Both the position numbers and the translations under genes were made by a program. From Convolutriloba macropyga (taxonomy: Eukaryota), in assembly GCF_964194025.1 (NCBI RefSeq), contig NC_134480.1, positions 16,182,001-16,246,000 on the forward strand: a stretch of 64,000 nucleotides of DNA. The letters are read 5' to 3'. Position 1 is the first letter of the stretch; each line of letters opens with the position of its first letter. Shown piece by piece: positions 41,501-47,500 of this stretch. The notes under the pieces were generated by a model, which saw only the letters and a list, made by a program, of their open reading frames with translations, was not told the DNA's origin and did not search any database.

Positions 41501-44500
41501 CGAAAAGTCCAATTCCAGCGACTGCGGCTGCAATTGCAAGCGGGGCGGCTCGTTTTTGTCGATTGTGAGGGTCTTCTTCGACTCTGGTAAGGAATTTTTC
41601 AGTCTCGTTGCGTAATTTAAGGACTTCAATTTCGGCTTCTATGGTTTCATTGAGTATTTTTGTGTAAAGCCAATCAACATTGAAGGCTGCTGTTTGGTTC
41701 CGGTAAGTAGTGCTATGGGTAAGGTTGCAAAATTCCGATTGCGTGATCCACTTTTTCGAGAGTTCATTAAGTAGAGTCTCTACTTGTTGTCTGATAGTGA
41801 AATTATAGCGAGGAAACGGTACTAAAAATTCCACATTTATGAACTTTTCGGTAATCAGAATCTTTCCTTCTTTATGGAAGATGATGCCTTTATCCAGAGC
41901 TGCTTCTGTATTAATCGGGGTTTCAAAAGTGGGGCCGAAAAGTAAGAGATTCAACACAATTGTGAGTAACATTTTCAGATTTCAATAATATCGACTATGT
42001 TTCAGGACAATCTTCTACTGATGTGGCTCTTCTGAGTGTTTCAACTGGCTCTATTTGGTCTTCCGGTGTTTATTTGCTCATTTAGTTACTTTATTCGGGC
42101 TTCTAGATCTAGTTTTCTCAATATGGCACTTGTTTATGTGATGTTTGTTTATTTCAGGTGTACTCTACTTTTAGGTGATGTGTGCTGATGTGTGTATTTA
42201 TTGATATTACTACTGAATATGGTGTTTAAACATGTTGAAGTGTGGTTATTTGGTTGAATGATGGGTGTGTGATGTTGGGGATAGTGGTTGGGGGGGTCGA
42301 ATTATGCAGTCTTTACATGTTTTTTCGAGTTTTTCAGATTATTTGTTGTCAATATGTGCTTTAATATTACTGTCGGCCCGAATAATATCACTCTGGGGTG
42401 CTGCGGCAACGGGACCAGGTATGTATCAAGGAACTGGGTTCACTGGTCTCGTTTGCGGCACCCAGGATGTAATATCAATAATAGTACAGCAGTAGTTAAT
42501 AGCTTAGAAGATGGAGGAGATGGCTGGGACTGGGACGTAATATTATTATTAGTATTCATATTATTATTCTTATTATTCGGGATTGTTGGGATGTGGAGAA
42601 GGAGAAGGAGAGGAAGATGCGTGGGAAGAAGGAGGGAGAGGGAAGAGAGTGAAGATCAGGAAGATGAGGGAGGAGTTGAGATGGAGGAGACGACAGTTTA
42701 ACTTTATTTATAATTATTTATTTAACTTATTAACTGACTTTTAGTTGCATATGTTTAGTTGTAGTTTGGCATAGTTTGTCTTAATATACTGACTAATATA
42801 CTTGGTGCTACTAATATTTAATAAGCTGCTATTAATATCATGGTAATTAGTATATATCAAAGCTTGTTTTTGTAGGGAGAATTGAGGATATAAGTAGGGG
42901 TTAAAAGGAAGGATTAGAGAGGCGTAGTGAATAAGTGAATGCTAGTGAAAGGTGTAATTGTGTGTTCAGAGCGTTGTTGTGTGTTTTGTGGCATGTGTTA
43001 TTAACTATTAGTGGTCATTATAGCATGGTATTTAAATGTCCTTGGCATTTATTGCGTAATTTGTTCTGTTTGCGTGTTTTCATTCATGTGATTGTTCATT
43101 TTTGACATAACACTTTAGTTTTCTGCTCGCTTAATAACTAGTTTGACTCAGTTTTGAAACTTTCAGATAGTTATTGTGAATCATGGTTGTTTCCCAGTAT
43201 GAGGATTTTCTGACTTTCTTGCGAAGCAAGTCGTTGTCTCAGTCTGAATGGATGTATCCATCATTTGTTCGATCATCTGAGGAGCGACGAGCTTATCGGG
43301 ACAAAGCAGAACATATGGTACTGGGGACAAAGAACGTGGGAACATCAGAATTGGCCGTACATCGGGAGGTGTTGATGTACAAAGTGGAAGTGAAGGTGGG
43401 CAGCGAGATGCAAGTTCAGGAGAAGGAAATTCCAACTCAGCAGATGGTGTCTCAGGAGTTGGCTTCGCTTCATGTCGGGTTTAGTGCTTCTGCAAAGCAC
43501 ATTACTCGTGTGAGGTCACAAGTCGATCGCCTGAAAGCTGCTGGGTTCTTCTTTCCACGGTCGATGGGGGGATTGCAGGCCGCTGTTGAGAGGTAATTGC
43601 ATATATTTATAATATTCACTGATATTTTTATTTGTTTTTCTTTAGTTTGTTACATGTATTATTAATTGTGGAGTGGTGTATGCTTATTATTTAGAGCTAT
43701 TCGTGAGTGTGTGCCATGTTTCGTGAAGAAGATGCACGGCAAAGAGGTGCATTGCACTTTCCGTGCAAATTTGCGTGCAAATGTGTGTGCCGAATTGGGG
43801 TACGAGTTTTACAATGACATTTATGCTGAGCATGTGGACATAGTGTCATTTAAAACTCCAAAGTTGCTTGGTGCGGCTGGTGTGAGGGCCGAAGTTGGTG
43901 GTCTGTGTGCTCTCAGTGCTCTGTACTACACTTTAACTGGTCGGAAGTCAGGTATTTGTTGTGTTTTGTCGCAATTTTCACTAAGTTTTACTTTAATTCA
44001 CGTTTGATTGGTTTGTTGCAGACAAGAAGGTTCCCAAGCATAATGTTCGCGCTCTACGTTTGGCTATTGTGGCCAAGATGCGTTCGCCTGGGTTCTCTGA
44101 GCTTGTAAAGGACCAGTTAGGGTACTTTGTGTCGGAGTATGAGATTGCTGAGAGTGAAGATAATGGGTCGTTGGCCGAGTTCTGGGTAAAGTTTCTTTGA
44201 ATACTTGGTAATTCTAGTACGCGCATGTGTAGGTGGATACTTTTTAATGTTTTGATGTTTAGTTTGTCGGTATGGCTTATTTCCTCGGGTGCAACGTCAA
44301 CATTTATTGGCAGTATACTGAGGAAATGGGGGGCGGCTGGGTGTGTTACAGGCATTCAATCAATGCTAAAACCACCGCTCCTGCTGTACTGATCCAGTGC
44401 ATCGGGAAATTCATCGACAATGAGTATCGGTACCATTGTGAGCCAATCGTAGACTTTCCAAAGTGAGTATTTAACTGTTTTTGTGAATATTTATCGTGCT

Positions 44501-47500
44501 TTTCATATAATTTTGAGGCTTTTTCTTTATTATAATGACATTTAAACAGGTTGGACGATGCTGAGCGGTACGTGACTCGTTCTACTAGGACAAGGGGTCA
44601 GTCCGGTCAGTGTACTAGTGGTGGTGGTACCGTAGCTGAGGATAGCGCCGATGAGAATTGACTAGTGTCGGTGCAATTGTATTCATCATGTAGTTTTGTT
44701 TCATCTGTAGGTGAGTTTTTACTCATTATTTGTCAATTGTAGCTTTGTTAATTGGATTAGAATGTTGGAACTAGCAGTGAAGTGTGTGAGCATGTGGTTA
44801 CATTTTAATTGCAGTGTGTGACTTTATAATGACATATTTGTGAAAGTGAAATTTTGGTGACATAACGACTTTTTTGATTTTTGGGCATTTAATTAACTTT
44901 ACTTGTGAAATACTGGTCAGAAATTGGTTCTAATGGTTCTAGACACTTGTCCTGTTTATAAGCAGCGCTTGTGTGTAATTTGAACTGGTTTGGAAGAGTA
45001 TTTGGTACTAATTTTCACATGTAAATTTTTCGTAATATAGGCCATTTTTCCACATCAGGGCTGGTGTTACATATATGTGAATTTTTCAATTTTTATTGAA
45101 CTTTGGGTAAATTTTTTGGCTTGGCCCACTCGGTAGACATCTGTGGGGAATAACTGTGCAATAAATTCAGGTTTTTGGACACTTTTTGGTCAACTTTTTT
45201 ACTGATGTCTGAAAAAACGAAAAATGCGAAAAATTGAGGGCTCCAGCGTCACTCAATTTTTAAATTGCTCCGATTGGGCTCAAATTTGGTAGATCGTTTC
45301 AGGGGCTCAAAAAACCCTGCAGCGCAAAATTTTGGCGTAATTTAAGCATTTTTCGCAAAGTTATGATTGTTTTTGTGATCTGAACCTGGCTATTTTTGAA
45401 TCATCAAATTTCGGTCTAAATAAGTCTTCACTGTTCATACGTTTTCGGTATTGAATGGTTAAAATGGTACTGTCTGTGCTTGGTACTAATGTATTTTACT
45501 GAATTATAGGGTTTGAAGCTATTTATCGGGTCAGAACATTGATTTTTGCGTCCAAAATGCTAATTTTCAGACATGATTTTTCCACTAATTGAGTTTCTTC
45601 AAGACATGTTTCGGTCTGGTGATTTTCTAGTGGCCTAAATCAGGTGCTAACTGTTTGTACTGATATCTGTGGCTATCAGGGGTAGCATTTTGGTAGCTTG
45701 GAAGTTGAATAACTTGTGTTTTGTGCCAGTTTTTCTGTGAAATTTAGTAGATTTTTACTTGTGAAGCGTCATGTTTTGTGCATAAGTTGACATAGATTGG
45801 AGATAATTGATTTTTGGCGGTAATTGTGGGTCATACTAGTGAGTACTATGTTGTAGGCAGCTTTTGGTGTGGTTTAATGCATGATTTGACTATAATATAT
45901 TGAGTTTTTCACTTTAGAATTTCGGACCAGATTTTGTGAAATATGAGCAATTTTCGATTTCTTCACTTTTTTCAACATTTATAAATTTCTATGCGATTTT
46001 ATTGGTTGATTAGGCTTGGACAACTACTAGGGAGACTGAATATTGAATATGGGCGCATAATTCGGCTATTTGATACTATTTTGATAGTCTAATTTTGGCT
46101 CTGTTTTGACAAATTTGAGAAGAGTTTGGTAGGCTTCAGTTTTTTTACGATTATTTCAACATTTTACTTAAAAATTTTCAGTGTTTTTGATATGAGCGTG
46201 TAGAGCTTGAGCATGCGGATGTTTTAAGCTAATAATATCGGGTTTTCAATCAATATTTTGGATTTTATGAGCATGTGCGTGAATTTTCAAAAAGTCTCCA
46301 AAATTGAGGGGCCCAGCGTCACTCAATTTTTAAAATGTTTCGATCGAGCTCAAAATTGGTGAATCGCTTTATCGGCTCAAAAAACCCTGCAGCGCAAAAA
46401 TTTGGGCGGTTTCAACTATTTTTTTACGAGTTATAACGTTTTTGCTGCAGTGAACCTGGGTTTTTTGGAAAGGCCCAGATAGGGGATAGGTTATTGGCTA
46501 TGAGGTTATGAAAAACTTGTTCAAAATGATTGATATTGCTATGGTTGGACTGCTTATGAGTAGTGCTAACTGAATTAACAATAAAATTGGGCATATTCGG
46601 GTATTAAGATGCATTTTTGATCACTTTTTCTGGAAATTACACTCGATTTTTTGTGATTTTCGTTACTTTGGCACTTTTCTCAGCTTGTATTGGCACTAGG
46701 GAGCTGGGAGTGCATATTCTGAGAGCTATAGATATAGGCGTGCTGATGGTAGGGTTAATTGTTGTCAGAAGTTAATAATTTTGACTCTAGTGGGAAATAA
46801 CTGAATTTTTTCTGACAAATTTGTGGCAATTTCAGAGCTTATTTGGGTTTAAGTCTTCATGGTTGATACTGGGATGAGCTGGGACTGGTTTTTATGGTAC
46901 TACAAAGCTAGTGGGGGGTTGCACTAGGGTTGTAGGGGGTATAGGTGGCTTCAATCGGGTCATGTGGGGAATAAAATGACAAAATTTTTGAAGCAGTGAA
47001 TTGAAGCAGAAGCGCAATTTTCGTTTTTTCATCATTTTTCAACATATACTTGGAAATATTGGGTTTTAACGGTTGTTTGGGGTTGTACGATGTGGGTGGC
47101 AGCTGGGAGTAGCTGCTGGGGCATTTGGGACAGTTTTTGGCATATTTTTGGGGTATACTTTACACTACATTTTAATCAATTTTAACGCATTTTGGTAGGG
47201 TTCGGTATTTTTGTCATAACTCAACTTTTATTGATTTTTGACGGGATTTTTGGGTATTGGGATGTCAAGCGTGAGCAGTAGGATGGTCTAGGGCTATAAA
47301 ATGGGTCAATTGAAGGTTTTTTGTAGGAGTTATCATTGAATTCGAGCGGATTCGAAAAGTGTCAAAAATTGAGGGCTCCAGCGTCACTCAATTTTTAAAG
47401 TTCTCCAAATCACTTCAAAATTTGCATGTCGGTTCCTCGGCTTGAAAAATGCTGCAGCGCAAAAATTTGGGGTGATCGGGGCGTTTTTCACAATTTTATG

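Follow-up and report, generated by a model that had tools for sequence, protein, structure and literature searches.

What does an LTR retroelement gain from a spliced gene on the strand opposite its own, and how could the introns of such a gene last? These questions are raised by a stretch of 64,000 nt from Convolutriloba macropyga (GCF_964194025.1, NC_134480.1:16,182,001-16,246,000), called here the window, whose coordinates are used throughout. The window holds an 18.7-kb element with an antisense gene between its env and integrase. The element is of Ty3/gypsy type by its LTRs, its target duplication and its PR-RT-RH-IN order. The LTR pair has only 6 mismatches in 865, indicating recent insertion. 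No tRNA gene was found in the window.

The antisense gene and its host element

The features of the element are as follows.

38228..39092, minus strand: 3' LTR, 865 nt, TG..CA, with 5-nt target duplication GTGTT
39683..41981, minus strand: env-like gene; weak Baculo_F match (E 0.003, below the cut-off)
42285..42701, plus strand: second antisense ORF, for a small Cys-containing single-pass membrane protein
43183..43592, plus strand: exon 1 (aa 1-137); integrase-like N-terminal extension and the HHCC His pair H97 and H106
43593..43694, plus strand: intron 1, GT-AG, phase 2, 102 nt
43695..43951, plus strand: exon 2; C142/C145 CxxC that ends the HHCC domain, then OTU N-terminal extension with C168, and the putative catalytic Cys208 (43906-43908)
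43952..44021, plus strand: intron 2, GT-AG, phase 1, 70 nt
44022..44185, plus strand: exon 3; helical part of the OTU domain, with invariant Arg235
44186..44262, plus strand: intron 3, GT-AG, phase 0, 77 nt
44263..44462, plus strand: exon 4; OTU beta-sheet, with His335 (44434-44436), Cys336 and Glu337 (His+2)
44463..44549, plus strand: intron 4, GT-AG, phase 2, 87 nt
44550..44661, plus strand: exon 5; short unconstrained tail (shared-variant pN/pS 1.43, 11 variants); in the relatives the C-terminus is a basic, NLS-like stretch
47810..53636, minus strand: pol; protease, RT, RNase H, integrase (H2C2 and rve) and a C-terminal TARG1/OARD1-like macrodomain
53621..54895, minus strand: gag-like ORF, assigned by position, with no Pfam match
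56113..56977, minus strand: 5' LTR, followed by a primer-binding site starting TGG

Joined, the five exons make 1143 nt, or 380 aa and a stop, and splicing leaves zero internal stops. The sequence-only reading had proposed such a hidden five-exon antisense gene, and the four GT-AG introns, the 380-aa frame and the splice sites kept in other copies bear it out. GC content is 22-32% in the introns versus 47-54% in the exons. In a chance test a four-intron chain of 383 aa was recovered at the gene locus and a comparable one in 0 of 46 other strand-stretches of the window, none on the reverse strand and none in 30 local shuffles, a result flattered by thresholds chosen after the gene was known. 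In four sequencing runs read cover is as even over the introns as over the exons, and the runs resemble DNA; 0 of the 15 read joints listed, out of 40, coincide with the predicted introns, which in such runs is uninformative on expression. We infer the splice junctions from conservation, and there is very little doubt that the spliced gene is real.

In this copy pol is broken by a shift of frame near 50550 as well as by a stop codon in frame near 52690; env, too, changes frame, near 41100. These are the lesions with which the intact antisense gene had been contrasted. The lesions are there, but the contrast has no weight as a sign of special status, because the antisense gene itself is damaged in 13 of 30 copies and the 4-kb pol stretch is open in 4 of the 16 other copies compared (4 of 20 pol stretches were left out, the alignment being too short).

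Selection and retention

The 30 copies comprise the window and the best 29 of 40 other matches. In the 29 other copies 116 of 116 donors are GT and 115 of 116 acceptors AG, and indels common to several copies keep the frame. The gene is intact in 17 of the 30; Cys208 is kept in 29 and His335 in all. Variants shared among copies have a pN/pS of 0.19 with 0 shared stops; the ratio is 0.57 among singletons and, when the frame is shifted, 1.5-1.6. For shared variants over aa 191-345 it falls to 0.12. In the 17 copies with both regions, pN/pS is 0.15 for the antisense gene, 0.02 for the integrase core and 0.20 for the pol tail, and shared and single variants differ (Fisher p 0.003). The low ratio among shared variants indicates that selection was at work during element replication.

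Judged by its homologues, the gene is more widespread than the window alone could show. At 31 of 31 distant loci checked the homologue is antisense (both flanks are seen in 27), and its location and orientation in the element are constant across distant families. A phase-constrained spliced search of relatives' loci gave full exon chains at 16 of 35; the other 19 are broken copies or families beyond the size limits, whose exons still match the profile. In the L101 gene model exon 3 is unreliable. Intron positions and phases, Cys208 and His335 are common to eight families at 23-54% identity. The gene tree and the integrase tree have two deep splits in common (Mantel rho 0.52, p 0.03) but disagree in their shallow branches, and the integrases of gene-carrying families are 46-78% identical. 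The small membrane-protein ORF is also conserved in the copies and in some distant families. Protein word-index searches brought up six ORF fragments of the antisense gene family, while the ESM Atlas and an RT protein search returned only unnamed clusters and unnamed proteins, respectively.

The two halves of the protein

The C-terminal half had been read as OTU-like, and at the family level this homology is supported by profile comparison. By hhalign it matches Pfam-positive and Helitron-type OTU domains at 97.8-98.1% (E ~1e-13, 161-166 columns), against 0.13% for a reversed-sequence control. Seven of eight family proteins score 20-34 bits, where the control maximum is 7.3 (n=808); the window protein, the most divergent member, is by itself a weak OTU match at 2.4 and 8.5 bits, the latter just over that maximum. 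An exon-2 profile run against 1.84 billion proteins pulled out blind three Pfam-OTU proteins, among them a protein with matches to OTUD1, OTUD3 and a viral OTU structure. Of the profile's six long matches, the other three belong to repeat proteins that lack OTU, and we regard these as false. With a single-exon model of exon 4 from a related family, OTUs fill 8 of the 10 top Foldseek rows and 19 of the 42 rows listed, none of them significant (E at least 0.95), and in a wide fold search OTUD1 stands at rank 7 (Z 2.3). Single exons (5 from the window and 21 from relatives) matched no OTU or integrase family in Pfam, a PDB sequence search with exon profiles gave nothing under E 0.08, and the 27 matches of a PF02338 genome search include none at the antisense gene loci examined. 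Taken at the level of the family, we consider the OTU fold very likely.

The catalytic residues are less canonical. The motifs quoted in the sequence-only reading (GGLC208, R235, W303..Y306, H335-C-E-P) are present, and Cys208 and His335, in register with the OTU catalytic pair, do not vary among the 8 families. OTU enzymes usually have an Asp three residues ahead of the Cys, in D-G-x-C; here it is found in 0 of 8 families, and 47 database fragments, where their Cys box could be read, lack it as well. That reading was right that candidate catalytic Cys and His are present and the Asp replaced, with one correction on the triad: in most OTUs its third residue is His+2 and not this Asp (excerpts of 10.1101/2020.03.28.013474). 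Since His+2 is Glu in 7 of 8 families (Glu337 in the window) and Asn in 1, the triad is present. Arg235, invariant, aligns with the OTU Arg, a basic residue that supports the Cys loop and is conserved in OTUs (same excerpts). The aromatic residue between His and acid is absent, with Cys instead in 8 of 8 families, as also in one Pfam-positive Helitron OTU. The WG...E motif, the ubiquitin-tail grip, is out of register, the conserved W277 lying five places from the column expected for the aromatic residue that holds the GlyGly tail. The protein is probably an active protease.

The N-terminal half holds a likely HHCC zinc domain that the earlier reading of the window missed. All 8 families have H97, H106 and C145, and 7 have C142, in alignment with the zinc ligands of the elements' own integrases (hhalign E 4.6e-4, controls 0.3-0.5). 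A single-exon model of exon 1 from a related family has as its top 2 of 48,161 folds the PFV and Ty3 integrase N-termini (4bac_A: Z 5.5, rmsd 3.5, 75 aligned; 7q5b_A: Z 5.1, rmsd 4.7, 94 aligned), both Z values being middling; Foldseek gave no significant match for this model. The CxxC is followed after ~20 residues by the OTU extension in 8 of 8 families, and the DDE core and GPY/F are absent. We are confident, if a little less so than for the fold of the other half, that this is an integrase-type N-terminal domain.

Proposed function, rivals and known systems

We favor, with moderate confidence and from homology, an accessory ubiquitin or ubiquitin-like (UBL) protease, built like a Ginger1 transposase minus its catalytic core, in an env-bearing Ty3/gypsy-type LTR lineage. 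The gene would be read from its own internal promoter, opposite to gag-pol-env, with ordinary mRNA splicing. Its introns survive retrotransposition because the genomic RNA that is copied is the other strand and bears intron complements only; the strand is observed, and the remainder follows from LTR-element replication. The protein would join an integrase N-terminal module (extension and HHCC, lacking the DDE core) to a papain-like domain of OTU type, whose homologous Cys208-His335-Glu337 triad would most likely remove a ubiquitin or ubiquitin-like tag, a substrate for which the case is somewhat better than even. In the nucleus the integrase module may direct the protease to LTR DNA, to the integration complex or to integrase, and element proteins might so be shielded from turnover or silencing; this targeting to the integration machinery is offered tentatively. 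It is equally speculative that the enveloped lineage carries a virus-like counter-defence kit, in which the spliced antisense deubiquitinase, steered to the integration complex by a second, core-less integrase N-terminus, would act beside a pol-borne TARG1-like eraser of ADP-ribose and the small antisense membrane protein. Large RNA viruses are known to pair a macrodomain with a deubiquitinase. If the kit is real, a retroelement has reached this pairing independently.

The protein might instead be a regulator, which we think unlikely. The core-less module would then control copy number by acting on integrase, either as its chaperone or in a dominant-negative way, and the OTU part would bind only ubiquitin or metal (with Cys208, His335 and Cys336 as ligands). 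An integrase N-terminus without DDE core fits such a role, Cys336 is invariant next to His335 amid non-canonical motifs, and plant antisense ORFs are proposed as regulators (excerpts of PMC7264820). However, the catalytic Cys and His are invariant at 23-54% identity, His+2 is always Glu or Asn, and H-C-D-P is found too in a Pfam-positive Helitron OTU of the same genome.

Slightly less likely still is an active OTU-fold protease with a non-ubiquitin substrate, such as a host restriction factor, the element polyprotein or itself, freeing the integrase module. The triad is kept, yet all 8 families depart from the OTU pattern both at the ubiquitin-tail grip residues and at the Cys-loop Asp; a viral OTU also serves as a processing protease (excerpts of PMC3744425), and a processing role is proposed for Helentron OTUs (excerpts of PMC4067079). 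On the other hand, pol already has an aspartic protease, the invariant Arg235 is the OTU loop-supporting residue, and ubiquitin-binding surfaces vary widely among OTUs (excerpts of 10.1101/2020.03.28.013474).

Ginger1, as described in excerpts of PMC2836005, has a Gypsy-integrase N-terminal region with an H2C2 finger, a C-terminal OTU and GT-AG introns, as has the antisense gene. It differs in that the antisense gene lacks the DDE core and GPY/F, its CxxC leading straight into the OTU extension, has no terminal inverted repeats (40-270 bp in Ginger1) and is cargo of an LTR element. The likeness raises the improbable case of a passenger, a remnant of a Ginger1-like DNA transposon inserted backwards in an ancestral element, stripped of its core and carried without benefit. 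Ginger1 transposases run YPYY, H2C2, DDE and OTU with 0-4 introns (same excerpts), and the antisense protein shares this domain order minus the core, the likeness to YPYY ahead of the finger being one judged by eye. Against it, the window has 0 inverted repeat pairs of at least 40 nt, lower-bound searches found no exon-1 match in any reading frame longer than 291 aa and no Ginger-like parent, and the gene is retained across families with diverged integrases. Neutral carriage is largely refuted by the purifying selection on shared variants. As to origin, descent from a Ginger1-like transposon falls a little short of an even chance, and it is about as likely that an integrase N-terminus was duplicated and fused to a Helitron OTU. 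That fragments are linked by chance splice sites and borrow their conservation from the minus strand is hardly credible: the minus-strand frame sharing third positions is also low in pN/pS (0.16), but it has 6 stops in exon 1, the intron ends read CT..AC on that strand, and intron phases and positions recur across 8 families.

The nearest OTU relatives found for the putative protease are those of Helitrons and Helentrons (excerpts of PMC4067079 and PMC6431247; L150, L151 and P0049). They share with it a C..LG..F upstream extension and, in this genome, H-x-[ED]-P; unlike it, they keep D-G-x-C and WG...E and are located inside or next to Rep/helicase genes. The OTUs borne by LTR elements group in a separate clade (support 100/100). 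With OTUD1, OTUD3 and the nairovirus vOTU the protein has in common the C...H-x-E/N triad order, the supporting Arg and, as modelled, a C-terminal half of a helix and four strands; it differs in lacking the Cys-3 Asp, in having Cys for the aromatic after His, and in its fused integrase module.

The antisense ORFs of the plant elements Grande, RIRE2 and Retand likewise lie between pol and the 3' LTR, with family-wide retention, an internal promoter and a proposed accessory role, but have TRP28/SMC-like domains and not OTU (excerpts of PMC7264820 and PMC11963269); the words 'intron' and 'protease' are absent from the main text of both papers. Other LTR elements, too, have captured enzymes or ubiquitin-related domains in an accessory role, presumably directed at host systems, namely bdelloid GDSL/DEDDy ORF3 (PMC5408684), orchid AlkB (PMC12786077) and planarian Burro (PMC6431247). 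In the excerpts of these three papers no antisense spliced OTU gene was found described, and 'OTU' and 'intron' do not occur as words in PMC5408684. Helitrons and Ginger1 are already known to carry OTU domains, and plant LTR elements to carry antisense ORFs. Searches of open-access full text yielded neither an LTR element with an OTU gene nor a fusion of an integrase N-terminus to OTU. The role of transposon-borne OTUs has been speculative in the literature, as far as these excerpts go; here the domain has a small gene to itself, one that is under selection, and so can be assayed alone. Antisense placement gives a retroelement a route to keep a multi-intron gene. ORF-based annotation overlooks such genes, whose database homologues, in the exon-2 profile search, were found as exon-sized fragments.

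An antisense gene and its host element

Comparison of copies and distant relatives shows that a selected, intron-bearing gene lies antisense within an LTR element, and that it is predicted to encode an integrase-type N-terminus followed by an OTU domain whose triad is complete. The features concerned are as follows (window coordinates).

Minus strand, 18.7 kb: LTR element holding the antisense gene
38228-39092 and 56113-56977, minus strand: its LTRs, with 6 mismatches in 865 nt
43183-44661, plus strand: antisense gene, five exons
42285-42701, plus strand: second antisense ORF, with a short Cys-rich ectodomain, one transmembrane helix and a basic tail

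The LTRs end in TG..CA, the target duplication is 5 nt, and the antisense gene is flanked by env on one side and the end of pol on the other. Splicing of the predicted exons bears out the sequence-only reading of a five-exon, stop-free gene for a 380-aa protein. The introns are AT-rich and 70-102 nt long. Searching the genome yielded 41 matches, of which the 30 best, the window itself among them, were compared. In the 29 other copies donors are GT in 116/116 and acceptors AG in 115/116, and the start ATG is retained in 28; the gene is intact in 17 of the 30 sequences. Splicing is deduced from this conservation. A strong donor-like site at 44710, 49 nt past the stop codon, might mark a 3' untranslated intron, and an AATAAA is found downstream at 45160.

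Between the gene and pol, a ~190-nt repeat occurs in three copies at ~1070-nt spacing (45218-47546). The C-terminus of pol is a TARG1/OARD1-like macrodomain (47813-48190, minus strand; E 6e-15 against human OARD1), strongly constrained (shared-variant pN/pS 0.04); 16 of the 20 distant loci compared have a match to it.

The two domains of the predicted protein

The C-terminal half had been read as OTU-like, and this homology is well supported at the family level by profile alignments and family scores. Against an alignment of eight families of homologous genes, a profile built from ten other OTU domains of the genome reaches 97.8% probability and one built from 18 domains 98.1% (E 1e-13; reversed control 0.13%). 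OTU scores are 20-34 bits in seven of the eight family proteins, against at most 7.3 among 808 controls, the window's own protein standing just above these at 8.5. Independently of this, an exon-2 profile finds 54 matches among 1.84 billion protein representatives, 48 of them exon-sized fragments; three of six long matches are Pfam-OTU proteins, one being joined to part of a Pif1 helicase and one matching OTUD1, OTUD3 and a viral OTU structure. With a model of exon 4 only (pLDDT 66), OTUs take 8 of the top 10 Foldseek rows, none significant, and OTUD1 ranks 7th of 16 in a wide structure search.

Cys208, Arg235, His335 and Cys336 are invariant across the eight families, and the residue at His+2 is Glu in seven and Asn in one. 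The Cys-loop Asp, noted earlier as replaced, is indeed absent in all eight families, but the triad is not broken, since the third triad residue of OTUs is usually His+2 (10.1101/2020.03.28.013474). The residue after the His is Cys instead of an aromatic, and the tail-binding Trp is out of alignment; given these departures and the missing Asp, ubiquitin is a candidate substrate. The domain would strip ubiquitin or a UBL, and a protease acting on a non-ubiquitin substrate is one alternative.

In the N-terminal half all eight families have His97, His106 and Cys145, and seven have Cys142; these four residues line up one for one with the HHCC finger of the integrases that the elements themselves encode (33%, E 4.6e-4; controls 0.1-0.2%). 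For an exon-1 model of a related family (pLDDT 81), the sole matches at Z >= 5 among 48,161 chains are foamy-virus and Ty3 integrase N-termini; the Z scores are middling, and Foldseek with this model gave no significant match. These weak lines, three in all, agree on a putative integrase-type HHCC domain. Counterparts of this module touch integrase and viral DNA ends, and here it may target the protein. A regulator of integrase acting without catalysis is another alternative.

For the preferred reading, a ubiquitin- or UBL-stripping protein, the gene would be transcribed from an internal antisense promoter; its introns, being antisense to the genomic RNA, escape splicing during element copying. 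The protein might then enter the nucleus via an NLS-like basic tail present in relatives.

The space between the HHCC domain and the OTU is too small for a DDE core. Two origins have about the same plausibility: a Ginger1 transposon gene minus its core, or a new fusion in which a Helitron supplied the OTU. LTR-borne OTUs form a single clade (100/100) among transposon-type OTUs, and the tree picks out no donor. Searching the genome with PF02338 reveals further OTU domains, and the two checked are Helitron-borne. At a Helitron locus (L150, 1028-8557) one 2509-aa ORF carries an N-terminal OTU, then Rep-like and Pif1 domains. In the open-access papers searched, no OTU gene was described in an LTR element, and Ginger alignments or Repbase entries may hold closer precedents.

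Selection and inheritance

Variants shared by at least two copies, which mostly arose during element replication, comprise 59 synonymous and 39 replacement changes in the antisense gene, with no stops (pN/pS 0.19); for singletons the ratio is 0.57, with 9 stops among them, and for shifted frames it is 1.63 and 1.53. Exon 5 is without constraint. In the 17 copies that also have pol, pN/pS is 0.15 for the gene, 0.02 for the integrase core and 0.20 for the pol tail. The minus-strand frame with the same third positions gives 0.16, yet has 6 stops in exon 1. By these measures the gene is real and under selection, and a neutral passenger is an unlikely alternative.

Genome searches with the exons give numerous distant matches. 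The gene lies opposite env or pol in all 31 distant loci examined, with both flanks visible in 27 (7/10, 19/20 and 1/1 from three locus sets). When intron phases are held to those of the window (2, 1, 0, 2), stop-free chains are found in 16 of 35 loci, from eight families. The proteins of the eight families are 23-54% identical and the matching integrases 46-78%. The gene and integrase trees have two deep splits in common but disagree over the shallow branches (Mantel rho 0.52, p 0.03), a pattern consistent with long vertical inheritance. Among tested database fragments, 34 of 47 are <60% identical to any genomic locus compared, and one, searched against the whole genome, has a best match of 44%, scores having been obtained for 150 of the 168 candidates. 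The gene is probably present in other genomes too. At two loci (L065 and L071) it is tandemly duplicated inside single elements. Outside the window's element, local duplications of ~2.9 kb and 1.9-2.5 kb occupy 17425-22588 and 30141-33847.

The second antisense ORF

A Pfam scan of this ORF gave no match. Its frame is retained in 22 of 30 copies, as two sequence types, and it may have an additional 5' exon. A similar ORF with a signal-like N-terminus is found at the equivalent position in 12 of 30 distant loci.
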